Source: Gemmatimonadales bacterium (lineage in GTDB: Bacteria > Gemmatimonadota > Gemmatimonadetes > Gemmatimonadales > GWC2-71-9). From it: a stretch of 60,669 nt of DNA. The translations under genes were made by a program, and so were the position numbers. This document shows, piece by piece, positions 11,761 to 58,504 of this stretch (the first letter of the stretch is position 1; each line of letters opens with the position of its first letter). The notes beneath the pieces were generated by a model. It was not told the origin of the DNA. It was given only the letters and a program-made list of their open reading frames with translations, and did no database searches. Location: positions 1 to 60,669 of the forward strand of contig JBBQXQ010000005.1 of assembly GCA_038209515.1 (NCBI GenBank), in the 5' to 3' direction.

Positions 11761-11795
11761 TGGGAGCTGGGACTGGGAGCTGGGAGCTAATAGCC
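11761..11795 (+). repeat. Heptamer micro-array TGGGAGC x4 (one unit is 6 nt) followed by TAATAGCC
   Basis: The sequence reads tgggagc tgggac tgggagc tgggagc taatagcc and starts 3 nt after the TGA stop of the SnoaL-like gene. It fits the G3N4G3N3G3N4G3 pattern. Confidence 0.9.
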
Positions 11796-11804
11796 GGAGT
11801 TTGG

Positions 11805-12029
11805 TCAGCGGCGCCGTTCGGCGGCGCGATCGTGGCGGGGGCGGCCGCCCCGGAACTCGAAATGACTGTCGTTGAGCATCTTGGCAATCGACGTGGCACG
11901 GCCGTCACAGGGGACCCGGGCAAACTGCCGGGCCGACAGCCAGGCAGCATTGTACCAGGTCCTCGGCTTAAGCCCAGGATACAGGTGGGCGAATTCCGGT
12001 TTAAGACGGGCCTCGCGCGGGTTCTTCAT
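11805..12029 (-). CDS. Small hypothetical protein
   Basis: This is a 74-aa ORF with high third-position GC. I recognise no family. Confidence 0.45.
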   Translation of the reverse strand: MKNPREARLKPEFAHLYPGLKPRTWYNAAWLSARQFARVPCDGRATSIAKMLNDSHFEFRGGRPRHDRAAERRR

Positions 12030-12176
12030 GCCGTTGTCCTAGGGGTACCCCTTTAAAGCTAGGGACCTCTCCCGGTGGCGCAACTCGACGGCGGCGCCCC
12101 CGGCTACGTATACTTGGCGAGGCTAGATGCAGGGAATTGCGCGCTGGCAGCGCCTCATCCAAACCTGAGGAACGGC

Positions 12177-12380
12177 ATGGCCACGAAACTCGACAAGACG
12201 ATCAAGCGCGAGCTGGAGCTCGATGGCAAGCTGTACACGGTCGCCATCTCACCGGAGGGTGTGAAGGTCACCCCCAAGGGCGCCCGGAAAGGGCAGGAAA
12301 TCTCCTGGAGCTCGATCGTGAGCGGGGAGACCGAATTGCGCCGGGATCTGAACGCGTCGGTCGACGCCTATCGAGAGTAG
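12177..12380 (+). CDS. Small hypothetical protein
   Basis: The internal ATG follows AGGAA. The sequence MATKLDKTIKRELELDGKLYTVAISPEGVKV has a coding-like composition. Confidence 0.5.
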   Translation: MATKLDKTIKRELELDGKLYTVAISPEGVKVTPKGARKGQEISWSSIVSGETELRRDLNASVDAYRE

Positions 12381-12415
12381 GCCGGGGCCGGGAGGCCAAC
12401 CGGCGGGAGAGATCC

Positions 12416-18452: not shown

Positions 18453-19358
18453 TCAGGATAGGGCCGGTGCGGGCTTGGCGGTCAGAAGCAGACTCGCGGC
18501 GATGACCAGGAGCGAGCCTGCTACCTGCCAGACGAGCGGCTTGTCACCGAAGACCGGGATGGCGAGAAGGTAGGTGAATACGATGGATAGTCCCGACATG
18601 GCCGTCACCGGGGCGGCCCGGGCAAGGGAGTACGCCCGGGTCATCGCGATCTGGGCTCCGCCTCCGGCAAGGCCGGCGCCGAGGAGAAAGCCGGCGCCGG
18701 GCCAACCCGGCCAGTGCCAGACCGGGATGCTCAGGGCGAGGAAGGTGACTGACGTGACCAATGAAAAGTGGAGGACCACTGCCTCGTGGCTCTCACCGGG
18801 TCCGATCTTGCGCAGCCAGATCATCGCCAAGGCGTAAAAGACGGCGCCGACCGTCGCTATCAGCGCGACCGGGATGTCCCCGCCAAAGGCGGGTCGTACC
18901 ACGGCCACTATGCCGGCGAACCCCAGCAGCACCGCCAGCGCGACATGCGCCCCGACCCGCTCGCCGAGCAACGGTCCCGAGAGCAGCGCCACGAAGATCG
19001 GCGCCGTGGCGCCAAGGGTCACCGCGTCCCCCAACGCAATCCGACTCGACGCGAGAGCGTAAAAGGTGCAGACGGCGGCGGTGCTGCCGAGCACGCTTCG
19101 GCGCCAAGTATTGGGCCGATCGGTGATCTGCAGGGGGCTGCGCCGGTACCGGGCCAGGCCGAGTGCGATCAGCGCTCCCACGAGAAAGCGGGCCGCGGCA
19201 ATCTCCGACCAGGGAAGCTCGCGTGCACCCAATCGGGTACACACATTCATCGCCGCGAAAAACACCTGAGCCAGCACCATCCAGCCGAGGCCGTGGCGGG
19301 AAAGACGGGAAAGGCGGAAAGGACGGGAAGAGGAGGAAGGTCCAAGGTGAGAGGCCAT
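18453..19358 (-). CDS. EamA/DMT family transporter
   Basis: Ten TM segments form two EamA halves. The N-terminal tail SSSRPFRLSRLSR is encoded by a nonamer repeat array, so the start is uncertain (ATG 19358, GTG 19364 or ATG 19280). Confidence 0.75.
   Translation of the reverse strand: MASHLGPSSSSRPFRLSRLSRHGLGWMVLAQVFFAAMNVCTRLGARELPWSEIAAARFLVGALIALGLARYRRSPLQITDRPNTWRRSVLGSTAAVCTFYALASSRIALGDAVTLGATAPIFVALLSGPLLGERVGAHVALAVLLGFAGIVAVVRPAFGGDIPVALIATVGAVFYALAMIWLRKIGPGESHEAVVLHFSLVTSVTFLALSIPVWHWPGWPGAGFLLGAGLAGGGAQIAMTRAYSLARAAPVTAMSGLSIVFTYLLAIPVFGDKPLVWQVAGSLLVIAASLLLTAKPAPALS
19296..19340 (+). repeat. Purine-rich CGG-core nonamer micro-array (single arm)
   Basis: The sequence is gcgggaaagac gggaaaggc ggaaaggac gggaagagg aggaagg. 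It lies inside the annotated 5' end of the EamA gene. Confidence 0.85.
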
Positions 19359-19392
19359 TCTCACTATAAAGTAGTATCATCGTCCCGTGCCA

Positions 19393-19448
19393 CGGCCAAT
19401 AGCCAACGGCCAATAGCCACCGAGCTCCCAGCTCCTAACTCCCAGCTC
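19393..19448 (+). repeat. CGGCCAATAGCCA x2 followed by the complement of the GGGAGCT heptamer array
   Basis: Direct 13-mers lie at 19393-19405 and 19407-19419. They are followed by gagctcccagctcctaactcccagctc, which ends 2 nt before the ATG at 19451. Confidence 0.85.
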
Positions 19449-20896: not shown

Positions 20897-20972
20897 GCGA
20901 AGCGAAGGATCCTTCGAGTAGTCTGAGGGATCCTTCACTGCGTTCAGGATGACAACCTGTGCTCAGGATGAC
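20893..20972. repeat. REP/REPIN-like palindromic element (GTCATCCTGA...GAAGGATCC family)
   Basis: CTGAGCGAAGCGAAGGATCC and its imperfect inverted copy GGATCCTTCACTGCGTTCAG match at 17 of 20 positions. TCAGGATGAC then occurs twice, at 20944-20953 and 20963-20972. The element sits between the convergent decarboxylase and uvrA genes. Confidence 0.7.
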
Positions 20973-21006
20973 ATCAGCTCCCGGGAAGCCGCAGATACAC
21001 GGCGGG

Positions 21007-23808: not shown

Positions 23809-23822
23809 CGGTGGAAAATAAG

Positions 23823-23851
23823 CGACTTCCCCGCTTCCCCGCTTCCCCGCT
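23823..23851 (+). repeat. Octamer micro-array CCGCTTCC x3 (complement AGCGGGGA)
   Basis: cgacttcc ccgcttcc ccgcttcc ccgct lies in the 57-nt divergent region between the uvrA start (23808) and the 23866 gene. A single copy of AGCGGGGAAG also occurs at 36493-36502. Confidence 0.85.
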
Positions 23852-23865
23852 AATTTTCGCCACCC

Positions 23866-30384: not shown

Positions 30385-31695
30385 TCAGATAAGCGATGAC
30401 GCTGCCGCCACTCGCGCTTCGACCTGTTCCGCGGGCCACGTCAGCAGGGGCACCACTGGCTCGAGCGAGCGGCTCGGCGGACTCGACACAAAGATGCGCA
30501 GACGGCGAGCGCTCCGGTACAGCTCGTCCGCCACTCGGGGAAGTCCCAGGTGCCCGGCTCGACCGGCATCGGTCAGGCGTTCGATGGTCCCGCTCCGGGT
30601 ACGGAGAGGAAGGTTGACACCGAGCATCGCGGTCCGGGCCGGGAAGTCCAGCAGCACGTCGCCAGGCGCCAAACCGACCTGCTCGGCAATCGCATCCTCG
30701 ACCCGCTCGAGCAGATCAGGGTCGCTGGTCACCCAGGGCTGAACGTCTCCGGGGACTTCGCTCGCCGGCAGGTCCAGTGCGCGCTTGTGCAGGCGACGTG
30801 CCCGGATGCAGGCGGCGAGTCCGCTCTGGTCGCGCGCGAGGAGCAGCTCCATCAGCCCGTCGTCGGTGGCATCGGCGATGGCCTGCACCGTTACGGTTCC
30901 GCGCCGCACGGCGATGCGCACCGCCCGCTTGAACATGCAGGTTGCCGATCGAACGGCGTGGTGCCAGTAGACATTCCGGTACATCTGGTACTTGGCGAAC
31001 AGGAGCGACTCCAGTGCGCTCACACCTTTCTCCTGCACGCCGACCTCGAAATGCCCGGGCTCGACCTCGACCACCGTGAGTGACGAGAGCAGGCGGTCCA
31101 CGTCCACGGTTCCGTAGGGCACGCCGCACATCCGGGCGTCCCGGCTCAGATAATCGACCTTGTCGAGATCGATCGATCCGGAGATGAGTCCCTGGAGCGG
31201 ACTCCGGCTCGACCCGGTGATGAGGGCACCTATGATGCGAGGGAAATCGAGGCCACCGATCTGGATCAAACGCTCGCCCAACAGCCCTTGCGAGAGCTTG
31301 GTGACTCCTAGCGTCTCGTGCGACGGAAAGCCCGCCTCTTCCAGGGCATGGGAGAATGGATAGTGGCCGATGTCGTGCAGCAACGCGGCCATGCGGACTG
31401 CCAGGCACTCCTCCGCCGTCGCGGGGCCCAACTCGCCCAGCTCCTCGAGGGCGGCCAGTGCCCGCCGCGTCAGGTGATAAGCGCCGAGTGCGTGCTCGAA
31501 ACGCGTGTGGGTGGCGCCGGGATAGACGAGGAAGGAATGACCCACTTGACGAATGTAGCGAAGACGCTGGACGGCGGGCGTGTCGAGGGCAAGCAGGGCG
31601 GGGTGGTCGACCCGGATGTTGTCCCAGAGCGGATCGCGGATAATCTCGGAAAGGGCGGGAAAGGCGGGAAGGTCGGGAAGGTGGCGCGGGTTCAC
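30385..31695 (-). CDS. HD-domain phosphohydrolase (COG1078, dNTPase-like)
   Basis: IRDPLWDNIRV...QRLRYIRQVG...THTRFEHALGAYHL...LLHDIGHYPFSH is present. I chose the GTG at 31695. The ORF-track extension to 32118 reads through a repeat array and overlaps pckA. Confidence 0.8.
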   Translation of the reverse strand: MNPRHLPDLPAFPALSEIIRDPLWDNIRVDHPALLALDTPAVQRLRYIRQVGHSFLVYPGATHTRFEHALGAYHLTRRALAALEELGELGPATAEECLAVRMAALLHDIGHYPFSHALEEAGFPSHETLGVTKLSQGLLGERLIQIGGLDFPRIIGALITGSSRSPLQGLISGSIDLDKVDYLSRDARMCGVPYGTVDVDRLLSSLTVVEVEPGHFEVGVQEKGVSALESLLFAKYQMYRNVYWHHAVRSATCMFKRAVRIAVRRGTVTVQAIADATDDGLMELLLARDQSGLAACIRARRLHKRALDLPASEVPGDVQPWVTSDPDLLERVEDAIAEQVGLAPGDVLLDFPARTAMLGVNLPLRTRSGTIERLTDAGRAGHLGLPRVADELYRSARRLRIFVSSPPSRSLEPVVPLLTWPAEQVEARVAAASSLI

Positions 31696-38614: not shown

Positions 38615-39300
38615 TGTGCCTCCGCGGCGGCCTCGTCCACCGCGCTGTCGTACACCAGGCTGCCGTCGCGCATCTCGATGATCCGGTACGCCGTCTGCCG
38701 CACCAGATCGAGGTCGTGGGTGGCCATGACGACAACGGTGCCGCCGGCGTTGATGTCGCGCAGCAGCTGGAAGACGCCGCGAGTGGCCCGCTCGTCGAGG
38801 TTCCCGGTTGGCTCGTCGGCGAGCAGGATCGCCGGATCGTTCACCAGGGCCCGCGCGATGGCCACCCGCTGCTGTTCCCCACCCGAGAGCTCGCGCGGAT
38901 ACGCCCGGGCCTTCGACGAGAGCCCGACCTGGGTCAGAACCCGCATCACCCGGGCGGCAATGGTGTCGGTGCGCGCCCCGGTCACTTCGAGCGCAAAGGC
39001 GATGTTCTCCGCCGCCGTGCGGTCTTCCAGAAGACGGAAGTCCTGGAACACGACGCCGAGCCTGCGCCGGAGCCTCGGCACGTCGTCGGGGCGGAGGGTG
39101 GTGACGTTGTAGCCCGAGACCCGCACCTCCCCGCCGCTCGGTCGCTGCTCCGCGAAGAGCATCTTCATGATGGTGGACTTGCCGGCGCCCGAGTGGCCGG
39201 TCAGGAAGACAAACTCCCCCTTGGAGACGTGAAAGCTCACGTCCTTCAGGGCCATCGCACCATTGGGATAGGCTTTGTATACGTTGGAAAAGCGGATCAC
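38611..39300 (-). CDS. ftsE: Cell division ATP-binding protein FtsE
   Basis: MIRFSNVYKAYPNG...GHSGAGKST, LSGGEQQR and LLADEPTGNLD are present. Confidence 0.93.
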   Translation of the reverse strand: MIRFSNVYKAYPNGAMALKDVSFHVSKGEFVFLTGHSGAGKSTIMKMLFAEQRPSGGEVRVSGYNVTTLRPDDVPRLRRRLGVVFQDFRLLEDRTAAENIAFALEVTGARTDTIAARVMRVLTQVGLSSKARAYPRELSGGEQQRVAIARALVNDPAILLADEPTGNLDERATRGVFQLLRDINAGGTVVVMATHDLDLVRQTAYRIIEMRDGSLVYDSAVDEAAAEAQ

Positions 39301-39316
39301 GTCGTGGAATAAAGAA

Positions 39317-39378
39317 GGTCGAGGGTCTAGGGTCTAGGGTCTAGGATGCGTTTTGACCCTCGACCCTCGACCCTAGAC
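39317..39378. repeat. Inverted pair of GGGTCTA/GGGTCGA heptamer arrays
   Basis: The sequence is ggtcgagggtctagggtctagggtctagg - atgcgtttt - gaccctcgaccctcgaccctagac. The right arm contains the stop codon of the metC-like gene, and the left arm ends 17 nt before the ftsE start. Confidence 0.9.
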
Positions 39379-40539
39379 TCCCTTTTTTCCCTCAAGCGCC
39401 TGACTCAAATCCCCGATGATGTCCGCTGCGTCCTCGATGCCACAGCTCAGACGCAAAAAGCCGTCCGGGATGCCGATCTTGAGTCGGCCCTCCGGGCCGA
39501 TGCTCTTGTGTGACGTGAGGCGAGGCTCCGAGATGAGCGTCTCCACGCCGGCGAGGCTCGGTGCATGGGTGATCAACTTGAGTCGTTTGAGCAGCCGCTC
39601 CGTCGCCTTAACGCCGCCCTTGAGCTCGAGCCCCACCATCCCCCCGAACCCGTTGAGCGCGGCCTTGGCGTGTGCGTGGTCCGGATGCGACGGCAATCCG
39701 GGGTAATGCACCCTGGTAATGCCGGGGTGTTGCTCCGCCCACTGCGCGACAGCCAGGCCGTTGGCGTTGTGACGCTCCATGCGCACCGCGAGCGTGCGCA
39801 TCCCCCGGTCGATGAGCCAGGCCGCGTGGGGATCGATGGCCTGGCCCCAGAGCCGCATGAGGCGGTTCACCTCCTCCACAAATGCACTCGAGCCTGCCAC
39901 CACACCGGCGATCACGTCGCTGTGCCCGTTGAGATACTTGGTGGCGCTGGTGATGACGACGTCCGCACCGTGCTCCAGGGGCCGGTAGTTGATCGGGCTG
40001 GCGAAAGTGGCATCCACCAGCAGCGCCAGGCCGTGCTCCTTGGCGAGGTACGAGATCGGGCCCAGGTCGATGACCCGCATGAGCGGGTTGGTGGGCGTCT
40101 CTACGAAGAGGGCCCGGGTGGCCTTGCGCATCGACTTGCGCCAATGCCGCACCTGGTCCGGGCTCACATAGGTGACCTCGATGCCGAAGCGGGCCAACTC
40201 CTCGTCGAAGAGCCGCTGGGTACCGCCATAGATCCAGGTGCTCGCGATCAGATGGTCGCCGGGGCGGAGCATGGCAAGGTGAGCAAGTGCGGTTGCTCCC
40301 ATGCCGCTGGCCACGAAGATCGCGTCCTCCGCACCCTCGAGCAGCGCGTACTTCCGGGCCAGCTCGACCTGGTTCGGGTTGTTGCCGTAGCGGCTATAGA
40401 GCACCTCCTCGTCCGATCCGATCGGGTTGACGAAGGTGCTGCTCTGGAGCAGGGCAGGGGCGATCGGTGCCCAGTCAGGCCGGCGGTGCGGTGTGCCGTG
40501 GATGGCGGTGGTGGAGAACCCGAACCCGGACCGGCTCAT
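39373..40539 (-). CDS. Cys/Met-metabolism PLP enzyme (cystathionine gamma-synthase / beta-lyase family)
   Basis: The PLP-lysine motif is SATKYLNGHSDVIAG, and the typical trans-sulfuration family pattern is present throughout. Confidence 0.85.
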   Translation of the reverse strand: MSRSGFGFSTTAIHGTPHRRPDWAPIAPALLQSSTFVNPIGSDEEVLYSRYGNNPNQVELARKYALLEGAEDAIFVASGMGATALAHLAMLRPGDHLIASTWIYGGTQRLFDEELARFGIEVTYVSPDQVRHWRKSMRKATRALFVETPTNPLMRVIDLGPISYLAKEHGLALLVDATFASPINYRPLEHGADVVITSATKYLNGHSDVIAGVVAGSSAFVEEVNRLMRLWGQAIDPHAAWLIDRGMRTLAVRMERHNANGLAVAQWAEQHPGITRVHYPGLPSHPDHAHAKAALNGFGGMVGLELKGGVKATERLLKRLKLITHAPSLAGVETLISEPRLTSHKSIGPEGRLKIGIPDGFLRLSCGIEDAADIIGDLSQALEGKKGV

Positions 40540-41072: not shown

Positions 41073-41971
41073 CGCGGCTCCGCGCCCTGCGCCGGGATGA
41101 TGATCTGCACTTGCGCGCCCGGGAAATACGCCAGGTTCTCGCTCAGAGGGATGTCCTCATCCCAGGGTGGGATGATGGACAACCGGGCAGTGCCGCTGCG
41201 GATGGAGATCTTCCCCTCCCATTGGTCGAGAAATCTCTTGATGAACGCGAGGCCCTGGCCCCGACCCGGATCGCGGAAGCGACTCACCCCTTGAATGAGG
41301 GCCGCCTCCAGCGCCGCGCCGTCCCCCCAGCGCTCGCCGAAGCGTTTGGCGTGGGTGCTCTCGAGCGAGCGGCGGAATCCCACACCCCCGTCGCTCACTG
41401 CGATGACCACGACTCTGCGACCCAGCCGGCGGCGGAAGGTGTACGCCTGGACCGCAACCCAGCCGCTGGTCCCCGCGTGCTCCACAATATTCTGGCAGGC
41501 CTCTGAAAGCGCCATACTGAAGCGAAGCGTGGCCTTCATTTCGAGACCCAGCTCCCCGTGTAAAATCCGGGAGGCTCCCTCGGAGATCTTATCGACCACG
41601 CCGTGGACGTCCTCGGATGCCCGTACCGGCGTCACGTCGAGCAGCACGTCGGACGGCCCGGTGGTCGTGGTGCGCGGGACCTTGCCGTGGAGCTCGAACA
41701 GCTCCGCGGCGTGATGAAAGAACCCGGCGCGGGCCCAGTACCGCTTCACCTCGTCGCTGGTGGGCACCGTCAGCAACGGCTTCTCCCGCTTCGCTTCCGC
41801 CAGCGCCTGCCCGGCAGTCAGGATGCCAATGAGACCATACGGGGACGCCCACTGGGTGCTCCGCGCGTCCAGCAGCACCTTCTCCTCCGGGGGCCACTCG
41901 GCGAATCCGCCGGCAAAGGCGTCGAAGGTGCGGTCCTCGAAGTGCGCAGGAACCTCGATGACCCGGGTCAC
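41069..41971 (-). CDS. GHKL-superfamily ATPase (SpoIIAB/RsbW/HK-like) with novel N-terminal domain
   Basis: The N-box is EACQNIVEHA, G1 is VSDGGVGF and G2 is GRGQGLAF. There is no DHp/H-box. The N-terminal region of about 130 aa is STAS-like (VLLDARSTQWASPYGLIGIL). Confidence 0.65.
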   Translation of the reverse strand: MTRVIEVPAHFEDRTFDAFAGGFAEWPPEEKVLLDARSTQWASPYGLIGILTAGQALAEAKREKPLLTVPTSDEVKRYWARAGFFHHAAELFELHGKVPRTTTTGPSDVLLDVTPVRASEDVHGVVDKISEGASRILHGELGLEMKATLRFSMALSEACQNIVEHAGTSGWVAVQAYTFRRRLGRRVVVIAVSDGGVGFRRSLESTHAKRFGERWGDGAALEAALIQGVSRFRDPGRGQGLAFIKRFLDQWEGKISIRSGTARLSIIPPWDEDIPLSENLAYFPGAQVQIIIPAQGAEPR

Positions 41972-42972
41972 GGGGTCACCAGCTCGCCGCGGAGATGGCG
42001 GGCCAACCCGCTCGCGCCCCGAAAGCCGGCATTCCTTGCGGCGAGCGCCGTGGCATGGCGCAGCGCGGCCTCGATTGAGTCCCCGGCCAGCAGCCGGGCA
42101 AAGGCCGCGGCCCCGAAGACGTCACCGCATCCCGTCGGGTCGAGGGTTTCGACGTTGGTAGCGGGGATGAGCGCGGTGCGGACGGTCGGCCGGTCGGCCG
42201 GTCGGGCGGTCGGTGCATGCAAGCGATCCACCCCCGACCGACTGACCGACTGACCGACTGACCGACTGTCCGCCAGACCATCAAACCCCGGCGCCGCGAC
42301 GTAGGCGACCCCCTTGGAACCCAGCGTCACCGTGAGCAGCGAAACGCCGGCGCCCAGGGCGTCGGCAGCCAACGTCAACGGGTCGGGCGTGAGCTGCTGC
42401 ATCTCATCTTCGTTCAGCTGAACCATGTCGAAGCAGCCGAACCAGGCCGGCGCGTTCGGCAGTGGTTGCAGCACCCGCATGCCGTCCTGCTGCATACCTA
42501 GGAAGAGACTGTGGAGATCGGCGTAGACTGGTCCGGCAAACCCTTGCCGTAGAGCCTGCGCGGTCCCCAGGCAGAGCTCGAATCCCGAGATGAAGTTCAG
42601 GTAGATGGCGTCCAGGTCCCGCACCATTGGTCCCAGCTCGGGCCAAGTCCACCCGGGGACACCGCCGGCCATTCGTTCGCACCGTCGCTCGGTGGACTGG
42701 TAGTGCAGCACCACGCGGTTGTTGGGGGCCGTGACCTCGACGCAACGCGCCCCCCGCGCCACCCGGGACAAGCCGCGCAGGAGATCCTGCGCCTCCGCGC
42801 TCAGGTCGCGGCCCACTTTGATCAGCGGAACCATCTCCCAGTCCGGCGTCAGGCTCGCGTCCAGTCCCGCGAGGGCGTACGCGATGCCTCCCCACTCCTC
42901 CACCGGAGGGGCGAGTTGGTCGCGGCCATAAATGAGGTCCCAGACCAAAGAACCGAGGATGCCGATCCGCAT
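41968..42972 (-). CDS. PfkB-family sugar kinase carrying an in-frame 96-nt repeat insertion
   Basis: The ribokinase-like pattern includes the C-terminal motif DPTGCGDVFGAAFA. An extra segment of about 32 aa (ADSRSVGQSVSRSGVDRLHAPTARPADRPTVR) is encoded by the repeat. Confidence 0.8.
   Translation of the reverse strand: MRIGILGSLVWDLIYGRDQLAPPVEEWGGIAYALAGLDASLTPDWEMVPLIKVGRDLSAEAQDLLRGLSRVARGARCVEVTAPNNRVVLHYQSTERRCERMAGGVPGWTWPELGPMVRDLDAIYLNFISGFELCLGTAQALRQGFAGPVYADLHSLFLGMQQDGMRVLQPLPNAPAWFGCFDMVQLNEDEMQQLTPDPLTLAADALGAGVSLLTVTLGSKGVAYVAAPGFDGLADSRSVGQSVSRSGVDRLHAPTARPADRPTVRTALIPATNVETLDPTGCGDVFGAAAFARLLAGDSIEAALRHATALAARNAGFRGASGLARHLRGELVTP
42178..42273. repeat. Inverted pair of octamer arrays (CGGTCGGC x4 / TGACCGAC x4) inside the PfkB CDS
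   Basis: The sequence is gcggacggtcggccggtcggccggtcgggcggtcggtg - catgcaagcgatccacc - cccgaccgactgaccgactgaccgactgaccgactgtccgc. The length is 96 nt, or 32 codons. Confidence 0.92.
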
Positions 42973-43993: not shown

Positions 43994-45005
43994 GCGGTTC
44001 CTCCGAGCCGATGATCCTGGCCAGTGCTGCCGCCACGTCGCCTACCGACAGATCGCGCATACATCGGTGATGCCCGAGTGGACAGGTCGGTGGGCCGTGT
44101 TTCGAGCACGGGCGGCACGGCAGCTCCTCGTGCCCCAGCACGACGTCACCGCCGCGGCGTGGCCCAAAGCCGAACTCGGGCACCGTCGGTCCGAACAGCG
44201 CGACGACCGGGGTTCCCACCGCCGTCGCCAGATGAAGCGGCGCCGAGTCGTTGGTGATCAGAACCGCGGCGCGCCGAATGAGCGCTGCCGACCCACGAAG
44301 GCTCAGCGCGCCGGCGGCGCTCACGGCCCGCCCGCGAGCGGCCTGGACGATCGCATCGGCCAGCTGGGCGTCTTCCGCACCGCCCACGATGACCGCGGTC
44401 CGGTCGAGCCCCGCGGCCAGCTCGGCGTAATAGGGCCAGCGCTTGGTGGCCCAGACCGAGCCAGGAGCGATGGCCACGAAGTCGGGCCCGACCCCGTGCG
44501 AGGCGAGCCAGGCGTCGGCCGCCGCGAGATCGGTGGGCGCGAGCCCGATGCTCACCGGCGGGGCAACATCTCCCGGCCTCATACCGGCGAGCGCGAGAAG
44601 TCGCTCGACCTCATGGCCCTGCCGGGGACGGGCAACCCGGCTGGTGTAGGTGACAGCGGCGGCGCTGTCGGCGAAGCCGATTCGCTCCCTCGCACCGGAC
44701 CAGAGGGCGAGCAGCGCCGACCGGAGTGACTGATGCGGCAAGTACACCCGGTCATAACCCCTGGCACGCAACTCCATGCCGAGCCGCCGGAACGGTTTCC
44801 AGCCCCGGCCGAGGCCGTGCTTGTCGTAGCGCACCACATCGCCCACCGCCGGGTGATGGTCCAGCAGGCTTGCAGCCGCCGGTGTGGTCACCACGTCAAC
44901 CGGGCCGTGCCGGTCGGCGAGCACCGAAAGCAGCGGGGTACTGAGGATGACGTCGCCGAGGAAGGCGGTCTGGATTACCAGAGTGGACGGCTGCCCACCC
45001 ATCAT
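43971..45005 (-). CDS. Glycosyltransferase family 9 (LPS heptosyltransferase-like)
   Basis: VIQTAFLGDVILSTPLL and the C-terminal motif NDSAPLHLA.A.G.P.VALFGPT are present. The ATG overlaps the lepA stop by 1 nt (TGATG). Confidence 0.8.
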   Translation of the reverse strand: MMGGQPSTLVIQTAFLGDVILSTPLLSVLADRHGPVDVVTTPAAASLLDHHPAVGDVVRYDKHGLGRGWKPFRRLGMELRARGYDRVYLPHQSLRSALLALWSGARERIGFADSAAAVTYTSRVARPRQGHEVERLLALAGMRPGDVAPPVSIGLAPTDLAAADAWLASHGVGPDFVAIAPGSVWATKRWPYYAELAAGLDRTAVIVGGAEDAQLADAIVQAARGRAVSAAGALSLRGSAALIRRAAVLITNDSAPLHLATAVGTPVVALFGPTVPEFGFGPRRGGDVVLGHEELPCRPCSKHGPPTCPLGHHRCMRDLSVGDVAAALARIIGSEEPRAIRTWD

Positions 45006-46804
45006 CAATCCACCTGTAGGACGGCCAGAAACGCCTCCTGCGGGATCTCCACCGATCCGATCTGCTTCATGCGTTTCTTGCCCTCTTTCTGCTTCTCCAG
45101 AAGCTTGCGCTTCCGGGTGATGTCCCCGCCATAGCACTTGGCCAGCACGTCTTTTCGGAACGCCGAGATCGTCTCCCGGGCAATCACCTTGTTGCCGACT
45201 GCCGCCTGGATGGCCACCTGGTAGAGTTGGCGGGGGATCAGCTCCTTCAGCTTCTCCGCCACCTTGCGGCCATACTCCTGCGCCTTGTCGCGGTGGATGA
45301 TGACGCTGAATGCGTCGATCGGATCGCCATTGATGAGCATGTCGAGCTTGACCAGATCGGACTCGCGATAATCGGCTGCTTCATAGTCGAGCGAGGCATA
45401 GCCCCGGCTCAGGGACTTGAGCTTGTCGTAGAAATCCAGCACGATCTCGCCCAGCGGGAACTCGAAGTCGAACTCGACTCGCGTGGTGTCGAGGTAGTGC
45501 ATCCCATTGTATACCCCGCGCCGTTCCTGGCCCAGCTTCATGATGCCGCCGATGTAATCGGCCGGCGCCATAATGCGCGCCTTGACGTATGGCTCTTCGA
45601 TGCGATCGATCTCGGCCGGGTCCGGCAGTTTGCTGGGGTTCTCCAGCAGCAGCATCTCCCGATCGGTGCGGTAGACCTTGTACTCCACCGTGGGGACCGT
45701 GGTGATCAGGTCGAGGTTGAACTCTCGCTCCAGCCGCTCCTGCACGATTTCCATATGCAGCAGTCCCAGAAACCCGCAGCGGAACCCAAAGCCAAGAGCG
45801 GTGGAGGACTCCGGCTCGTAGTGCAGGCTGGCGTCGTTGAGCCGCAGCTTTTCCAGCGCGTCGCGGAGGTTCTCGTACTGGTCCGAATCGGTCGGGTAGA
45901 GACCGGCAAACACCATGGACTTGACATCGCGGTAGCCCGGCAGGAGCTCGCTCGCGCGGTTGGCCGCATCGAGAACGGTGTCGCCGACTCGGGCATCCCG
46001 GACGTCACGCAGGCTGGCCACCAGGTAGCCCACCTCACCGGCCACCAACGCGCCGGTGGGATGCTGTCCCAGCTGGAGGTAGCCGACCTCGTCCACGTGA
46101 TGCACGTCTTCCGGGTGCGCGCCGAAGCAGATCTCCATCCCCTCACGCACCGCGCCATCTACCACCCGGATACTGGGCACCGCGCCGCGATACCGGTCGT
46201 AGTACGAATCGAAAATCAGCGCGCGCAGCGGCGCATCATCCCGCCCCGCGGGCGGGGGCACCCGGGCCACGATCGCCTCCAGCAGCTCGGGGACACCGGT
46301 GCCTTCCTTGGCGGAGACCGAAAGAATCTCCTCCCGCTTGGCCCCGATCAGCTCCATGATCTCCTTGGCTCGGCCCTCCGGGTCGGCGCCAGGCAAATCG
46401 ATCTTGTTCAGTACTGGGATGATCTCGAGGCCGGCGTCCATCGCGAGAAAGAGGTTGCTCAGGGTCTGCGCCTGCACCCCCTGGGAAGCATCCACCACCA
46501 GAATTGCGCCCTCACACGCGGCAAGTGAGCGGGAGACCTCGTAGGTGAAGTCCACGTGACCCGGTGTGTCGATCAGGTTCAGCTCGTATGGGGTGCCATC
46601 GCGGGCCGTGTAGTTCATCCGGACCGCGTTCAATTTGATGGTGATTCCCCGTTCCCGCTCGAGATCCATGGTATCGAGCAGCTGGTCGCGCATCTGACGC
46701 TTCTCGACGGCGCCGGTGGCCTCGATGAGCCGGTCGGCGAGCGTGGATTTGCCATGGTCGATGTGGGCGACGATGCAGAAATTGCGAATGTGGGACTGGG
46801 GCAT
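45005..46804 (-). CDS. lepA: Translation elongation factor 4
   Basis: [33 protein letters not shown] and the LepA C-terminal domain are present. The length is 599 aa. Confidence 0.96.
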
Positions 46805-46816
46805 GGGGGAATATAA

Positions 46817-46958
46817 GGCGGTCGGGCGGACGGGCGGTCAGCCGGTCAGATTGTGTTATTCGGAGTTGGGTCAGGCGGTATTATGTTCGGCGGTGCCCCA
46901 CACAACGACTGTCCGGTCGTGGGAGCGACCGACCGCCCGTCCGCCTGTCCGCCTGACC
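46817..46958. repeat. Cluster of GGCGG(A/T)C(R)G-type octamer repeats in both orientations
   Basis: ggcggtcgggcggacgggcggtcagccggtcag occupies 46817-46849, ggtcaggcgg occupies 46869-46878, and cgaccgaccgcccgtccgcctgtccgcctgacc occupies 46926-46958. A 14-nt exact complementary core pairs 46826-46839 with 46930-46943. Confidence 0.88.
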
Positions 46959-47823: not shown

Positions 47824-47854
47824 CCTTCCCCGTCCTCTCCGTCTTCTCCGTCGC
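47824..47854 (+). repeat. Pyrimidine-strand nonamer micro-array (complement of the GACGGAGAA type)
   Basis: ccttccccgtc ctctccgtc ttctccgtc gc fills the 33-nt gap between the convergent stops at 47822 and 47856. Confidence 0.85.
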
Positions 47855-52211: not shown

Positions 52212-55200
52212 GCCTGAAGCCGGTAGTCGATGCGTTCGAGCGCGCACCCGCCGTGCGCGACCTGGGCGATCGTCTTCCAGGCCGTGGCGGCACGCTCCGG
52301 CTGGGAGGTCTTCCCGGGTCGAGCGGGGCGGCGTTGGTGGCGTGGCTGGCCCGGACCTATCCCCAGCGCCAGCTGACCGTGATCGCCCCGTCGCCGGCAG
52401 ATGCCGAGCGGTGGCTCTCGGACTTGGCGCAGCTCACCGAGGTAGCTACCGCCCTCTATCCTCAACGAGAAGCGTTGGGCGAGGACGAGCCCCATTACGA
52501 GATCGCCGGAGAGCGAGCGGAAACGATTCAGGCGCTGCTCCAGGGCCGGTTACGGATCCTGGTGACCACCGCGCGCGCCACCGCGGAACGAACGCTCCTG
52601 CCTGCCGCACTCCAGCGGCTGAGTCTCCGGTTAGCCGTCGGGGACAGCCGCCCGCCCGCCGAGGTCGCCCGCTCGCTCGAGGCCATGGGATACCAGCGGG
52701 TGCCGACCGTCAGCGAGGTCGCCGAGTTCAGTGTGCGCGGCGGAATCCTGGACCTGTACGGCTTCGGCATGGCGGCACCAGCCCGACTGGAATGGTGGGG
52801 GGACGAGATCACCTCGCTCCGCGGTTTCGATCTGACTACGCAGCGATCGCTCCAGGAACTGAGCGACATCACGGTGTTGCCTATCAACACCCAGGCGGTA
52901 CGAGAAGAGGCGGACTGGCGGACAGAACTTACCGCCGTACCGCCGTACCGCCGTACACTGCTCGACCTTCTCCCGCCCGACACACTGGTCGTCGAAGAAA
53001 CCCCCGGACCTGACTTCGACGAGGTCACCCGGGCCTGGACCGAGGCGGCGCACCATCTCGAGGTGGCCCGGCGTCTGGGTGAGGACGTACCCAGCAGGGA
53101 GAGCATCTTCCAGCCGCCTGGCGAGTGGCGCGAGCGACTCGAGCAATTTCCCCGCCTCCTGCTGCGCGACGATACGGTGGACCTGCAGTTCGGCTTCTTC
53201 CCGCCCGAGCGCATCGACCGGGATCTCAACCGCCTGCGCTCCCTGCTGGGTCCCGGCCTGCCGACCCTGATTCTCTGCGACAACGAGGGGCAGCTCGAGC
53301 GCCTGGAGGAGCTGCTCGAATCGCCGCTGTATCCCGGGCAGGGTCGCGCTCGGGGCAACGGTGCTACGCTCGCCATCGGGGCTCTCGAGGGCGGCTTCGT
53401 CATGCCCTCGCTCCGGGTGCTCACTGACCACGAGATCTTCCGCCGGGCGCGCCGGTTGCGCCGGCCGCGCCGGTACCGTGAGGCCGCGCCTTCAGGAGCC
53501 ACCGGCGCTCTGAGTCTGGGCGACTACGTCGTGCACCTCGAGCATGGCATCGGCATCTACCGCGGAATCGAGACGATCACCGCGGGCGAATCCACCCTGG
53601 AGGTTGCCATCGTCGAGTACGAAGGGGGCGACCGGCTCAACGTGCCGCTCTACCGTCTCGACCAGCTCGAGCGCTATCGCGCCTCCGGTGAAGATGGAGA
53701 CCGTCCGCCACCGCGGATCCACCGGCTCGGTGGGTCGACCTGGCAGCGGGTTCGGGAGAAGACCCGACAGGCCATCAAGCGGATGGCGGCTGAGCTACTC
53801 GATCTCTACGCCCGGAGGAGGGTCACCGGCGGCTACGCCTTTCCACCCGACACCAAGTGGCAGCGCGAGCTGGAGTCCAGCTTTCTCTACGAGGACACTC
53901 CCGACCAGCGAAAGGCCACCGAGGAGGTCAAGCGGGATATGGAGAAGCCGCTTCCCATGGACCGCCTGCTGGTCGGCGATGTCGGATATGGCAAGACCGA
54001 GATCGCGGTGCGCGCGGCGTTCAAGGCGGTCCAAGGCGGGAAGCAGGTCGCTGTCCTGGTGCCCACGACGATTCTGGCCGAGCAGCACGGCCGGACCTTC
54101 ATCGAGCGCCTGGCCGACTTCCCGGTCAAGATCGAAGTGCTCTCCCGGTTCCGAACCCAGAAGGAGCAAAAGGCGGCGCTCACCCGCCTGGCCGACGGAC
54201 AGACGGACATCGTGATCGCGACCCACCGGCTCCTGTCCAAGGACGTCGTGTTCAAGGACCTCGGCCTGCTGGTGGTAGACGAGGAGCACCGATTCGGGGT
54301 GAAGCACAAGGAGCGGCTCAAGGCGCTGCGACTTTCGGTTGACGTGCTCACGCTCACCGCCACGCCGATTCCCCGGACCCTCCACCTGTCGCTGGCAGGT
54401 CTCCGGGATCTGACCCTGATCGAGACCGCGCCGCGCGACCGATCTCCGATCCTGACTTTCGTTGAGCCGTGGGACGATGCTCTGCTGGAGGAGGCGTTCG
54501 CCCGGGAGATCGACCGTGGCGGGCAGGTCTTCATGGTCCACAACCGCATCGAGACGATCGACACCATCGCCGAACGGGTCCGGACACTGGCGCCTCGGGC
54601 GCGGGTAGGGGTGGCCCACGGGCAGATGGCGGCGGAGGAGCTCGAAAAGGTGATGCGGTGCTTCGTCGCGGGTGAGGTGGATATCCTCGTCTCCACCATG
54701 ATCGTGGAATCGGGGCTCGATGTCGCCAACGCGAACACTATGGTGGTGCACGACGCTCACCGCTTCGGGCTGGCGCAGCTGTACCAGCTGCGGGGACGAG
54801 TCGGGCGGAGTCACCGCCGGGCCTACTGCTACCTGCTGGTCCCCGACGCCATCGACGCGGAAGCCGAGGAACGTCTCAAGGTGCTGGAGCATCATACTGA
54901 TCTGGGCTCAGGCTACCGGATTGCACTGCGGGATCTCGAGCTCCGGGGGGCGGGCAATCTGTTGGGAGCGGAGCAGTCGGGTCATGCTCAGGCGGTCGGG
55001 TTCGACCTCTACCTCCGCTGGCTGGAGGAGACCGTCCGGTCGTTGCGGGGCCAGGGCACGGTGGAGCAGCCCGCGCCGCCCGATGTGGTGCTCGACCACC
55101 CCGCCCACCTTCCGGACGGCTACGTCCCGGACGACGACGTCAAGCTCGACCTGTACCGCCGACTGGCGCGGTCTGCCTCATCCAACGAAATTGACGGGCT

Positions 55201-55509: not shown

Positions 55510-55523
55510 CTAGACCCTAGACC
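55510..55523 (+). repeat. CTAGACC x2 (complement of the GGGTCTA unit)
   Basis: ctagacc ctagacc begins 3 nt after the mfd stop. The unit is the same as at 39317-39378. Confidence 0.7.
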
Positions 55524-55541
55524 TCTTTGAACGGAGTACAA

Positions 55542-57047
55542 ATGCGTCGGTTCGGCATCTTGATGTCCCTCGTGCTGACGGCCGGCCTCGGCGCTTGCGG
55601 CAGCTTCCGCGACCTCTTCTCGGCGCACGCGGACGTAGTGGCCGAAGCGGGAGACCAGCGACTGACCCCACAGCGGTTGAGTCAGATCATGGCGGGGGGC
55701 AAGGGCAAGCGGGCCAACCGCGATGCGGCGGGCTTCGTCACCAACACCTGGGTGGACTACTCATTGTTCGCGCAGGCAGTGGCAGACGGCAAGCTGCCGC
55801 TCGATTCGGCGAGTATCGCTCAGGCTGTGTGGCCCGAGCTGGCAGAGCTTCGCGGGGGCCACTGGCATGATTCACTGATGGCCCGCCGCTCCCACATTTC
55901 CCCCACTGCAGCCGACAGTACCTATCAGGCAAATCAGGTCAGGGTTCTTCAGCACATCCTCTTCCGGTCGCTGCAGAACGCCACGCCCGAGGTGCGCCAT
56001 GCCGCTCGGAAGAAGGCAGAAGACGCGCTCGCGAGGGTCAAGCGCGGTACTGATTTCGGCCAGCTCGCATCCCAGGTTTCTGAAGACCCCGGCAGCAAGC
56101 GGGACAACGGTTTTCTGCCGCCCAGCCCGAAGGGGAAGTTCGTGCCCGCCTTCGACAGCGCGGGCTGGAGTCTTGCGCCTGGGGCAGTCAGCGGCGTGGT
56201 GGAGACGCCGTTCGGCTACCATATCATCAAGCGTCCCAGCCCGGACGCTGTTCGTGAGCGGATCAACGCCTACCTGATACAGAGCGCAGGAACCCGGCTC
56301 GACTCCATCTACATGGATAGCCTGGCGATCATCAACAAGATCAAGATCTCCAAGGGCGCGGGCGCGGCCATGCGGGCGGCTGGTGAAAATCCGGAAGAGG
56401 CGCGCAACTCGAAGAAGACGCTCACGTCCTTCAAGGGCGGGGAGCTCACCGTCGGCGAGTTCATGCGGTGGGTGCGGGCCCTGCCGCCGCAGTATGCCGC
56501 CCAGCTGAAGCAGGCGGACGACAGCATGCTCACCCAGTTCGCCAAGATCCTCACGCAGAACGTGCTGCTGCTCCGCCAGGCCGACTCGGCGAAGATCGGG
56601 GTCACGCCGGAGGAGTGGAAGGGTCTCCAGGAACACTACCGGGGCCAGCTGGATACGCTCCGCGTGGAGATGGGGTTGGACACCGCGGCCCTGTGGGATT
56701 CTAGTGCCGCCAAGGCCGACCGAAGCAAGGTTGCGGCCATGAAGGTCGACCTGTACTTCGACCGGCTGCTCTCGGGCAAGTCTCGGCTCCGTCCGCTTCC
56801 CTCCGCGCTGGCTACACTGCTGCGCGAACGCTCCGGATACCGGATCTACGAGGCAGGGCTGAACCGCGCCGTCGAGCTCGCCGAAGTCGAACGCGCCAAG
56901 ACCGATTCCACCAAGGCCAAGGCAGGACCGATGCAGCCGGCACCGGGCCCGGCGCCAATCCCGGGAATGGGTCCAACCGCACCGGGAGAGAAGGCCCCTG
57001 CCGCGGCGCCGGCGCCCCAGCGAGCGACGCCGCCGAAGAGTCCATAA
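55542..57047 (+). CDS. PpiC-type peptidyl-prolyl isomerase lipoprotein (SurA/PrsA-like)
   Basis: The ATG follows GGAG. The lipobox is LTAGLGAC and the parvulin core is FGQLASQVSEDPGSKRDNGFL...ETPFGYHIIK. Confidence 0.8.
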   Translation: MRRFGILMSLVLTAGLGACGSFRDLFSAHADVVAEAGDQRLTPQRLSQIMAGGKGKRANRDAAGFVTNTWVDYSLFAQAVADGKLPLDSASIAQAVWPELAELRGGHWHDSLMARRSHISPTAADSTYQANQVRVLQHILFRSLQNATPEVRHAARKKAEDALARVKRGTDFGQLASQVSEDPGSKRDNGFLPPSPKGKFVPAFDSAGWSLAPGAVSGVVETPFGYHIIKRPSPDAVRERINAYLIQSAGTRLDSIYMDSLAIINKIKISKGAGAAMRAAGENPEEARNSKKTLTSFKGGELTVGEFMRWVRALPPQYAAQLKQADDSMLTQFAKILTQNVLLLRQADSAKIGVTPEEWKGLQEHYRGQLDTLRVEMGLDTAALWDSSAAKADRSKVAAMKVDLYFDRLLSGKSRLRPLPSALATLLRERSGYRIYEAGLNRAVELAEVERAKTDSTKAKAGPMQPAPGPAPIPGMGPTAPGEKAPAAAPAPQRATPPKSP

Positions 57048-57059
57048 GAGGTAGTCACG

Positions 57060-58463
57060 ATGAATGACAGGTTCTACAGAGCAAGCGCACTGATCGGCGT
57101 TCTCTTGCTGCCCGGTGTCGCCAGACTTGCGGCGCAGGATACGACGGCGGCGTCTTCCGACACGGCGGGCGCGGCGCCGGATACGCTGAACCCGGTTACC
57201 GGGGCAGCGACCCCCCGCCGCGACACGACATTCGTGGTCGATCGGGTGGTGGCTGTCGTCGGCAATCGGCCGGTGCTCGCGTCCCAGGTGGACGAGGAGA
57301 TCTTCTCCCGCCAGTCCCAGGGCGGCAAGGTGCCCACCACGCCGGAAGGGCTCAACGGGGTACGTCACCAGATCGTGTCGTCGATCATCGACGAGGAGCT
57401 GCTGGTCCAGCAGGCTCAGCGGGACACCACGATCAAGGTCACCGACGAGGAGATCGCCAGCGGCGTCGAAGAGCAGGTGCGCAAGGTGCGGAGCAACTTC
57501 ACGTCCGAAGTGGACTACCGGGCCGAGCTCAAGAAGGCGGGCTTCCAGACGCCGGAGGAGTATCGCCGCTGGCTCACCGATCAACAGCGGCGCGCGGCAT
57601 TCCAGAACCGGTTGATCGAGAAGCTGCGGACCGACGGCAAGCTCAAGGCGGTGGCGCCGACCGAAAAGGAGATGCGGGCGTTCTTCGACGAGCAGAAGGC
57701 TACGCTCGGCAGTCGCCCGGCCACCCTCTCGTTTCGGCAGATCGTCGTCTCACCCACGCCCTCGGCCGACGCGAAACTCAAGGCCAAGACCCAGGCGGAC
57801 TCTATCGTGCTGGAGCTGAGGAGGGGGGCGGACTTCGCTACGGCTGCTCGCCGCTTCTCGCAGGACCCCGGCTCCAAAGACCAGGGAGGCTCGCTCAACT
57901 GGTTCCGCCGCGGAGTCATGGTGCCGGAGTTCGAGCGGGTCGCGTTCACGCTCAAGCCTGGCGTGGTGTCCGATCCGGTGGAGTCGCCCTTCGGCTATCA
58001 CATTATCCAGGTGGAACGGATACAGCCCGGCGAGGTGCAGGCCCGGCACATCCTCATCGTACCCCAGATCGACTCGGTGCACGTGGACAGCGCGCGAGCC
58101 ATCGCTGAGTCGGTCCACAAGGCCGTGGTCGGCGGCGCCTCGTTCGATTCCCTGCAACGCATCTATCATGACCGCTCGGCCGAGCGTGACGCCGAGAGCG
58201 TGCCGGTGACGAAGCTGCCGGAGGCGTACGGGAAGGTCATCGGTGAGGCGGACTCCGGGGCGGTGCTCCCGGTGTTCACCATGCCGGGGGCGGGCGGGCG
58301 GGATCAGTTCGTCGTGCTCAAGGTGACGAACCGCCGTCCCGAGGGAGAAGTCAGGTACGAGGACGTGCGGGACCGCATCCGCGATCAGCTGGGGCAGCAG
58401 CTCGCGATCAGGCGTTATCTCGACCGGCTGCGAAAGGCGACCTACGTCGAGATCAGGTCCTGA
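57060..58463 (+). CDS. SurA-like periplasmic chaperone / PPIase
   Basis: A signal peptide and a SurA-N-like domain (VVDRVVAVVGNRPVLASQVDEE) are present. The parvulin domain reads FSQDPGSKDQGGSLNWF...ESPFGYHIIQV. Confidence 0.8.
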   Translation: MNDRFYRASALIGVLLLPGVARLAAQDTTAASSDTAGAAPDTLNPVTGAATPRRDTTFVVDRVVAVVGNRPVLASQVDEEIFSRQSQGGKVPTTPEGLNGVRHQIVSSIIDEELLVQQAQRDTTIKVTDEEIASGVEEQVRKVRSNFTSEVDYRAELKKAGFQTPEEYRRWLTDQQRRAAFQNRLIEKLRTDGKLKAVAPTEKEMRAFFDEQKATLGSRPATLSFRQIVVSPTPSADAKLKAKTQADSIVLELRRGADFATAARRFSQDPGSKDQGGSLNWFRRGVMVPEFERVAFTLKPGVVSDPVESPFGYHIIQVERIQPGEVQARHILIVPQIDSVHVDSARAIAESVHKAVVGGASFDSLQRIYHDRSAERDAESVPVTKLPEAYGKVIGEADSGAVLPVFTMPGAGGRDQFVVLKVTNRRPEGEVRYEDVRDRIRDQLGQQLAIRRYLDRLRKATYVEIRS

Positions 58464-58464
58464 A

Positions 58465-58504
58465 GAAGGCGGAGAAGGCGGAGAGGGCGGAGAAGACGGA
58501 GAGA
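58465..58504 (+). repeat. Purine-rich nonamer micro-array GAAGGCGGA x4
   Basis: gaaggcgga gaaggcgga gagggcgga gaagacgga gaga begins 2 nt after the SurA-like stop and ends 18 nt before the pdxA TTG start. Confidence 0.9.

Follow-up and report, generated by a model that had tools for sequence, protein, structure and literature searches.

Tandem arrays of 7-, 8- and 9-nt units sit at the gene boundaries of a 60,669-nt stretch of DNA from a soil Gemmatimonadales lineage (GenBank assembly GCA_038209515.1, contig JBBQXQ010000005.1, positions 1 to 60,669; here called the window), and in many cases two arrays form an inverted pair that can fold into a hairpin. These arrays evolve very fast between strains, with gain, loss and replacement of units and with co-varying arms. 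We give about an even chance to the reading that they are self-renewing repeats produced by replication slippage, the arms of which are kept alike by template switching and/or by selection for an RNA hairpin.

Arrays were called with Tandem Repeats Finder (TRF) at a period of 7–9 nt, at least 2.9 copies and a score of at least 40. The window contains 16 such arrays, compared with a mean of 0.04 and a maximum of 1 in 100 third-order Markov simulations, while a stricter detector returned five near-perfect arrays against none in 200 simulations. A preliminary description of this DNA, made from the letters alone, had listed arrays of several hairpin-capable unit families and had made its claim depend on an excess over composition-matched random sequence. 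All listed arrays were recovered by TRF and by direct reading of the sequence, together with a few more, the families and their folding capacity were confirmed, and chance is excluded. The arrays are real, although two entries need correction, as 36493–36502 is a single unit and 55510–55523 comprises only two units. Copy number ranges from 2.9 to 6.9 per array, mostly 3–5, and nearly all arrays have a G/C skew of ±0.3 to 0.7, the weakest being the C-rich arm in pfkB (−0.17). Assembly artefacts, which the description had named as a possible refutation, are not the source, since the same arrays are found in independent ENA, NCBI, JGI and Logan assemblies. For example, the pfkB element of locus L088 matches that of the window exactly, and at the ftsX/M23 junction there is no difference between the window and L083, L086 or L090. 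Across 78 non-Gemmatimonadales lepA loci there are about 0.26 arrays per 10 kb, compared with 2.6 per 10 kb in the window.

The placement of the arrays at gene boundaries, also part of the earlier description, is borne out. Within the window, 14 of 18 arrays lie no more than 30 nt from a start or stop codon, compared with 14% for random placement (binomial P = 2e-9), and the association holds when it is counted per locus (10 of 12, P = 2e-7). The type A array (GGAGCTG, 6.9 copies, 11743–11788, plus strand) overlaps the TGA stop codon (11756–11758) of a SnoaL-like gene (11282–11758). The divergent region between an EamA gene (start near 19280, minus strand) and a PLP-dependent decarboxylase gene contains two arrays. 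The first, a GGCGGGAAA-type array of about five units (19295–19340, plus strand), is C-rich when read along the EamA sense strand; the second, the type A complement AGCTCCC (3.7 copies, 19423–19448, minus strand), ends 3 nt before the decarboxylase ATG at 19451. Between them lies a perfect 14-nt tandem of ACGGCCAATAGCCA in two copies (19392–19419) that was absent from the earlier list. Two further arrays fill gaps: CTTCCCCG in 3.2 copies (23826–23851, minus strand) in the 57 nt that separate uvrA (start 23808, minus strand) from a divergent LPG-synthase-TM gene (start 23866), and CTTCTCCGT in 3.1 copies (47825–47852, minus strand) in the 33-nt convergent gap between an EamA gene and an M28 peptidase gene. 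The two type D units TCTAGACCCTAGACC (55510–55523, minus strand) begin 3 nt past the mfd stop codon, and AGAAGGCGG (4.3 copies, 58464–58502, plus strand) directly follows the stop codon of a SurA-like gene (58463), upstream of pdxA. More generally, G-rich arrays tend to begin 0–3 nt past stop codons, as at 11758, 31797, 37745, 58463 and elsewhere. A strand rule is apparent: the sense strand is the G-rich one in arrays that follow a stop codon, and the antisense strand is the G-rich one in arrays that precede a start codon. It holds for the arrays at 11743, 19295, 19423 and 58464 and for all pairs, the exception being the array upstream of lepA in L001. As a separate observation, no such array is present at 1–11700 of the window (genes for LysM, SLT, MoaC, DNA polymerase III delta' subunit, RCC1 and Kelch repeat proteins) despite a similar gene density.

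Inverted pairs account for 6 of about 12 loci in the window. Five had been listed as hairpin-capable, and folding agrees: they form hairpins of 30–55 bp with z-scores from −4.5 to −5.9, and none of 200 shuffles folds as well. A typical stem contains roughly one mismatch for each repeat unit, and the loops span 11–85 nt. The pair at 31646–31798 lies between the PEPCK stop codon (31797) and an HD-domain gene and consists of a G-rich arm (31646–31684, KCGGGAARG, four copies), a 65-nt spacer and a C-rich arm (31750–31798, CTTTCCCGY, five copies). At 37655–37744, a G-rich arm of GACGGAGAR (37657–37698) and a C-rich arm of TCTCCGTCT (37714–37744) fill the space from ftsX to the M23 peptidase gene. 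Between lepA and a divergent EamA gene (46817–46958) lie a G-rich arm of GGCGGWCG (46817–46849) and a C-rich arm (46926–46958), separated by a spacer of about 77 nt. The remaining two listed pairs, upstream of ftsE (39317–39378) and in pfkB (42174–42279), are described below, as is a sixth pair in mfd (52908–52956) that was missing from the earlier list. It had further been claimed that each arm is internally homogeneous and differs from its partner at fixed unit positions. This is clear for the ftsE, pfkB and mfd pairs and weak for the HD pair, and it does not apply to the ftsX/M23 (37657–37744) and lepA pairs. The related suggestion of arm-wise slippage or homogenisation is supported by arm-specific consensus units and by the array of locus L003, in which identical units stand next to each other in blocks (AGGTAGTCC twice, AGGTAGTCG twice, AGGTGCTCG once) and the other arm is matched by the innermost unit alone.

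The strain comparison was anchored on FtsE (38611–39300, 229 aa), whose protein sequence is 100% identical on at least 23 independent public contigs. Ten contigs were fetched (L081–L090), with DNA that is 91–95% identical to the window. Loci L091–L096 were reached via PdxA homologues (the 55–60 kb region) and include a relative at about 75% nucleotide identity; an exact-protein look-up of the window HisG returned no record. The comparison of orthologous junctions, recommended in the preliminary description, revealed presence/absence, copy-number and unit-sequence polymorphism.

The clearest gain is at ftsE. Here, the pair 39317–39345 (GGGTCTA, four copies) and 39355–39378 (GACCCTC, 3.4 copies) lies within a 96-nt quasi-palindromic insertion (39301–39396) that replaces 8 nt and occurs in the window only. 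In the ten relatives, the stop codon of the Cys/Met-PLP gene overlaps the ftsE start codon at this site (GTGA), and in the outgroups L004 and L005 the two genes are overlapping or adjacent. The insertion has no target-site duplication, as no flank is duplicated. It provides the Cys/Met-PLP protein with a new C-terminus and an in-array TAG stop codon, and supplies sequence (reverse complement TTTATTCC, 39306–39313) just upstream of the ftsE start codon. Conversely, a pair downstream of lepA is found in L081 and L082 and is absent from the window.

At the ftsX/M23 junction, a pair is present in nearly every strain and has almost collapsed in L081. Its unit is GACGGAGAA in the window, GNCGGGAAA in six contigs and GCGGGGCA in L084, and the arms are complementary in all of them. 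L087 and L089 differ there by a single unit, and RNAalifold identifies compensatory changes on both sides in 11 of 30 consensus pairs. The units upstream of lepA are GGCGGWCG (GGCGGTCG) in the window and L081, and GCGGGGCA in L082, where the spacer is strongly diverged. Replacement of a whole cassette was considered at this site and can only be upheld in a softened form; read by eye, the L082 spacer retains patches of similarity to that of the window. Arrays upstream of lepA are also found in L001 and L003. At the site of the 47825–47852 array, a complete pair that encloses an inner hairpin is present in L082. The hisD/CDF junction carries a pair with arms located within the ends of both coding regions; two lineages differ there in both arms, the unit being GCGGGGCA in the first and GCGGGACA in the second. 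In the distant relative L096, the mfd site is occupied by an array of eight GGAACGAG units, and the G-rich SurA/PdxA array is kept in L091, L095 and L096. A small rearrangement is seen at 36493–36502 (plus strand), where the single GCGGGGAAG unit between convergent genes is inverted relative to CTTCCCCGC of related strains, so that TAAGC-TTCCCC-GCTTA in the relatives corresponds to TAAGC-GGGGAA-G.. in the window. This bears the signature of hairpin-loop inversion by template switching.

Two pairs are located in frame within genes, where the preliminary description had counted one exception inside a coding sequence (CDS). In the pfkB-family kinase gene (41968–42972, minus strand), the pair at 42174–42279 consists of CGGTCGGC in 4.9 copies and GACCGACT in 4.6 copies. 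The element is in frame in all strains, and the extracted stretch measures 133, 151 or 169 nt, with differences that are multiples of three. Strains differ in the unit, which can be CGGTCGGC, GCGGGGAA or GYGGGGAA, or CTGTCCGC in a one-armed form. The element is translated as a variable loop, and the loop of distant orthologues is 16–22 aa shorter. The second in-frame pair lies in the mfd linker region (52908–52956) and comprises two GGCGGACW units followed by TACCGCCG in 3.4 copies. The arrays were also said to contaminate gene calls with artefactual peptides. ORF callers do run through the 9-nt arrays, and the called N-termini of the M23 peptidase vary between strains, from 340 to 414 aa. Not all such peptides need be artefacts, because the 31646–31684 array probably falls within codons 1–17 of the HD-domain gene.

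Every pair seen has its G-rich arm first and its C-rich arm second, an order that reads alike on either strand. This applies to the six window pairs and to all pairs in L001, L003 and L081–L096. A metagenome sample was obtained by scanning for GGGTCKAGGGTCKAGGGTC, which gave 120 loci with GGGTCKA arrays. In this sample a partner lies downstream in 22 cases, compared with four weak upstream matches beside telomere-like arrays. In 15 arrays of the sample only the G-sense edge, and in three only the C-sense edge, directly adjoins the stop codon of a long open reading frame (ORF). The G-then-C order was also found in Nitrospiraceae, Oscillospiraceae and another bacterium, in pairs read by eye among 80 lepA loci, 78 of which are non-Gemmatimonadales. 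Such pairs of 7–9-nt units lie near lepA at L014 18885–19891 (Nitrospiraceae), L058 11801–14723 (Oscillospiraceae) and L079 11873–12053 (an unclassified groundwater metagenome-assembled genome, MAG). Their units are quite different from those of the window and partly AT-rich. Arrays in these unrelated organisms indicate that the phenomenon is sporadic across phyla.

In the mechanism that we propose, arrays would arise and renew themselves in place by replication slippage, so that neighbouring units in an arm stay alike. When an array encounters a short inverted match, complementarity of the two arms could be preserved by template switching, by selection for pairing or by both, yielding a long hairpin with a periodic stem. 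Slippage fits the data, since similarity is greatest between adjacent units, variants are grouped in blocks and differences between strains amount to single units. Template switching is described, in PMC7202029 and PMC13100816, as homogenising and extending the arms of inverted repeats. Arrays would survive only where additional sequence is tolerated, namely in short intergenic gaps, at the extreme ends of coding regions and, if their length is a multiple of three, in protein linkers, which would account for both the gene-boundary bias and the in-frame copies. A selective orientation filter is presumed to act on top of these putative molecular causes: G-rich sequence on the sense strand would be tolerated just after stop codons and C-rich sequence just before start codons, resulting in a G-rich arm followed by a C-rich arm. 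Possible causes of this filter include avoidance of Rho loading, avoidance of Shine-Dalgarno-like or G-quadruplex (G4) sequence before starts, and growth driven by R-loops. Once transcribed, the hairpins might serve as intercistronic structures that keep stop and start codons close, or they might stabilise or insulate transcripts; a putative role of the arrays at the RNA level is plausible.

Several observations weigh against slippage and template switching with orientation filtering. The hisD/CDF arms co-vary although as much as about 100 nt separates them and this interval includes a conserved gene start, a pattern that is easier to explain by pairing selection than by template switching. 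Sites at SurA/PdxA, in the mfd linker and at hisD/CDF persist at about 75% nucleotide identity, which hints at functional maintenance or strong hot spots. Unit families with a CGG or GGG core recur at many loci, and GGGTCKA recurs in many metagenome contigs, neither of which is predicted by blind slippage. The invariant polarity could stem from the generation of pairs rather than from selection. When folded as sense and antisense RNA, the arrays show no overall bias (13/22; 92 versus 71 G–U pairs). Finally, gene coordinates and starts were taken from our own codon-usage caller, and starts near arrays are uncertain.

One alternative is that the paired arrays are functional RNA punctuation, selected as terminators or insulators (factor-independent or Rho-modulating), for stabilising 3' ends, or for RNase III-type processing between cistrons. 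A periodic stem would be robust to indels, and single arrays would serve as periodic Rho-loading sites if C-rich and as R-loop or pause sites if G-rich. The co-variation of distant arms, the compensatory changes at ftsX/M23 and the occupation of the same junctions in distant relatives suit this idea, as does the strand rule relative to stop and start codons, which is also reported in PMC4692102. At ftsX/M23, all five variants, representing three unit families, fold better as sense RNA (32 versus 7 G–U pairs); it is the only site with a clear G–U excess on the sense strand. The arrays are also the main strong gene-end structures seen at 30–50 kb of the window, because terminator-like sites in that region do not exceed chance in a consensus scan (8 versus 8.4 in shuffles). 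A combined scan of this region for sigma-70 promoters and terminators gave chance-level counts, with none at arrays. On the other hand, there is no consistent U-tract 3' of the stems, and the combination of A-tract, stem and U-rich tail occurs only at the element 39301–39396. The presence of pairs varies between close strains, even within tightly coupled gene pairs, some pairs lie within coding regions, the outer units of L003 have drifted out of complementarity, and the arrays as a whole lack the sense-strand bias. Taken together, we regard selection for RNA punctuation as a doubtful, if serious, possibility. A regulatory role through G4 folding of about four G-tracts per array, in DNA or RNA, which has been suggested for the heptamers of Xanthomonas and Nostoc, appears very improbable here. 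Arrays do have about four units, four or more G3 tracts are present in the type A array and in both arms of the pair 31646–31798, and G4 formation in vitro is reported for GGGAATC and GGGGAYT repeats, whose placement follows the same rules (PMC4692102). Nevertheless, the motif of four G3 tracts is found in only 3 of 19 arrays, and most units (GACGGAGAA, GGCGGTCG, TACCGCCG) contain GG tracts only. Therefore, G4 formation cannot be a common property, and the duplex stem of the pairs would compete with it.

The arm order could also be built into the birth of the repeats, with G-rich repeats being written 5' to 3' outward from the flanks and pairs being G-then-C from the beginning. Two routes are conceivable: R-loop expansion where transcription uncouples from translation (after stop codons or on divergent untranslated transcripts), or 3'-end extension on both sides of a break. 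All pairs examined, across phyla, share this order, G-rich arrays have their 5' edge 0–3 nt past stop codons, and the repeats of PMC4692102 have their 5' ORF much closer than their 3' ORF (28 versus 160 nt on average). The proposal is nonetheless purely inferential, two simple selective rules at gene ends explain the order equally well, and the many unit families per genome argue against a single template; we rate it as unlikely. A broader version holds that the arm order and the stop-adjacent G-rich arrays across phyla reflect an undescribed general bacterial process, either repeat birth driven by R-loops or G-rich RNA where transcription loses the ribosome, or self-renewing punctuation hairpins with periodic stems. 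This is a speculative proposition, which we consider somewhat less remote. If true, punctuation hairpins would be insulators, terminators or coupling devices in lineages without canonical terminators.

The preliminary description had suggested a REPIN-like class as one option and had excluded CRISPR arrays, insertion sequences (IS) and miniature inverted-repeat transposable elements (MITEs). The exclusions stand, and the option is not supported. CRISPR repeats of 23–50 nt with unique spacers do not correspond to head-to-tail units with a period of 7–9 nt and no spacers, and the Rfam scan at gathering thresholds returned one tRNA-Asn and no other match in the window. Repetitive extragenic palindromic (REP) sequences share one imperfect palindrome consensus of 20–40 nt and have a cognate Y1 transposase, and REPINs are two inverted copies of them. 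Non-autonomous REPIN- or MITE-like elements, mobilised by a transposase whose gene lies outside the window, could explain why 39301–39396 is a clean quasi-palindromic insertion in one lineage, why unit families are common to many loci and why the tail after the array is similar between the C-rich arm of 39301–39396 and 55510–55530. The in-frame occupation of genes likewise recalls the Rickettsia palindromic elements. However, neither the conserved palindrome nor a GTAG head is shared, and only the 7–9-nt unit recurs between loci. A BLAST search with the spacers and the insertion against the window and all fetched loci yielded only self-hits and the L088 orthologue, and the spacers of the metagenome GGGTCKA pairs (11–170 nt; 22 with a downstream partner among the 120 loci) are all different as far as seen. 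At the insertion, 96 nt replace 8 nt without a duplicated flank, and terminal inverted repeats other than the arrays themselves are lacking. Among the window genes there is no transposase, REP-associated tyrosine transposase (RAYT) or reverse transcriptase. The missing recurrent core, the missing target-site duplication and the in-place change of units at fixed sites thus argue against REPIN- or MITE-type transposition, to which we give hardly any credence.

In other respects the window is an ordinary segment of a Gemmatimonadales chromosome with 65% GC. LepA (45005–46804, minus strand) is 84% identical to LepA of Gemmatimonadales MAGs. The genes, annotated by direct Pfam scan or through the L081 and L096 gene calls, are housekeeping genes, including uvrA, mfd, lepA, ftsEX with the M23 peptidase gene, PEPCK, pdxA and SurA-like peptidyl-prolyl isomerases (PPIases). 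A loose Shine-Dalgarno motif upstream of 27 of 62 genes is uninformative. A T/A-rich box, TWAWWTTYC(C/G), is located 3–6 nt upstream of several start codons in the window (46808–46816, 23812–23820, 23853–23861 and 39306–39313), upstream of lepA in L001–L004 and upstream of the CDF gene in L091, L095 and L096. Examples are TTATATTCC-CCC-ATG before lepA, a copy kept in distant relatives, and TAATTTTCG-CCACCC-ATG. Arrays abut these boxes, and the strain-specific insertion 39301–39396 gives one to ftsE. The box resembles the −7 promoter element of Bacteroidetes (TAnnTTTG), a likeness that would imply leaderless mRNAs or mRNAs with very short leaders. At 20897–20975, a non-periodic hairpin (z −4.4) lies between the convergent decarboxylase and uvrA genes and contains GAGCGAAGCGAAGGATCC and a twice-repeated (G)CTCAGGATGACA. 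Similar motifs occur within paired arrays of relatives, namely CGCTCAGGGTGACA in L082 (EamA/M28) and GAGCGAAGCGAAGG in L095 (SurA/PdxA), which suggests a second dispersed, REP-like repeat family. Furthermore, a near-perfect palindrome (CCTAGGGGTACCCCT...AGCTAGGG) at 12030–12074 occupies the 45-nt divergent gap between small ORFs at 11805–12029 (minus strand) and 12075–12380 (plus strand) and may be an operator.

For annotation, the arrays are a source of error, as they mislead gene callers: N-termini vary, spurious peptides are read from the repeats, and C-termini and stop codons are newly created. Their hypervariability makes them possible markers for strain typing. The lineage is informative in combining many unit families, natural strain variation in public metagenomes, joint change of arms, in-frame copies within housekeeping genes and a strict arm order that is shared with unrelated phyla, properties that make vague ideas such as slippage, G4 and terminator function testable.

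Various repeat classes resemble the arrays in part. REP, REPIN and bacterial interspersed mosaic elements (BIMEs) are likewise intergenic, form hairpins and often follow stop codons, and REPs can stabilise upstream mRNA. The arrays of the window differ in their periodic stems, in the recurrence of only a 7–9-nt unit, in the in-place change of units and in the absence of a RAYT from the window. Rickettsia palindromic elements are 100–150 nt long and have a conserved consensus, and are inserted in frame into surface loops of housekeeping proteins. Tolerance of hairpin-capable repeats in housekeeping proteins is common to them and to the pfkB and mfd elements, while their long conserved consensus contrasts with the micro-tandem arrays described here. 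Quasipalindrome template-switch mutagenesis (PMC7202029, PMC13100816) has signatures that fit the 36493 loop inversion and the insertion 39301–39396. It is a mutational process and not an element family, and it is not known to act jointly with simple-sequence-repeat slippage in producing periodic stems.

A closer relation exists to short heptamer repeats. Gene-end repeats with units of 6–9 nt have long been noted in cyanobacteria (as STRR, below), and those of Xanthomonas and Nostoc were characterised in 2015. The short tandemly repeated repetitive (STRR) sequences of cyanobacteria also comprise several heptamer families per genome, arranged in tandem, dispersed and mostly non-coding. Their units are unrelated in sequence to those found here, paired hairpins and a strand rule are not defining STRR features, and the Gemmatimonadales host and the 7–9-nt units place the arrays outside this class. 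STRRs of three tandem heptanucleotides in Calothrix PCC 7601 are mentioned, by way of citation, in PMC4692102. TAACTGA direct repeats were described in Beggiatoaceae, cyanobacteria and Bacteroidetes (MacGregor 2015, PMC4679880), with 2–6 copies just upstream of start codons, at a distance of a few nucleotides. Like the arrays here, these short heptamer arrays have a sporadic distribution across phyla, and they were proposed to be binding sites of a translational regulator. In contrast to the arrays of the window, they have a single AT-rich unit and are almost never inverted, with one indirect repeat among 170 sets.

The preliminary description knew of no account of such a system, yet Rehm et al. 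2015 (PMC4692102) describe repeats of the same kind, to which the STRR and TAACTGA repeats are further relatives. The closest known class is formed by these G-rich heptamer repeats of Xanthomonas and Nostoc together with the cyanobacterial STRR. The heptamers, GGGAATC in Xanthomonas and GGGGA(C/T)T in Nostoc, occur preferably in about four units within 50 bp of a stop codon (sense-strand repeats) or a start codon (antisense-strand repeats). About 90% are intergenic in two Xanthomonas genomes, and each Xanthomonas genome has 70–75 convergent inverted pairs. Sister species occupy the same junctions, with variation in length and sequence, and no function was found. Short G-rich tandem units in about four copies, placement at gene ends, the strand rule and convergent pairs are all seen in the window as well, and the units of types A and D (TGGGAGC, GGGTCTA) and GGGATCGA of L003 are of the same style. 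The arrays of the window differ in having 7-, 8- and 9-nt units, many families in one genome and mostly GG tracts in place of four G3 tracts. Their pairs dominate, and arrays invade CDS ends and, in frame, protein linkers. Their host belongs to the Gemmatimonadota, for which a literature search on Gemmatimonas and Gemmatimonadetes repeats retrieved no report of such repeats. To the class of Rehm et al., the present comparison adds strain-level evidence for joint replacement of units in both arms; what is new is this coordinated turnover between strains, the in-frame copies within genes and an arm order that is invariant across phyla.

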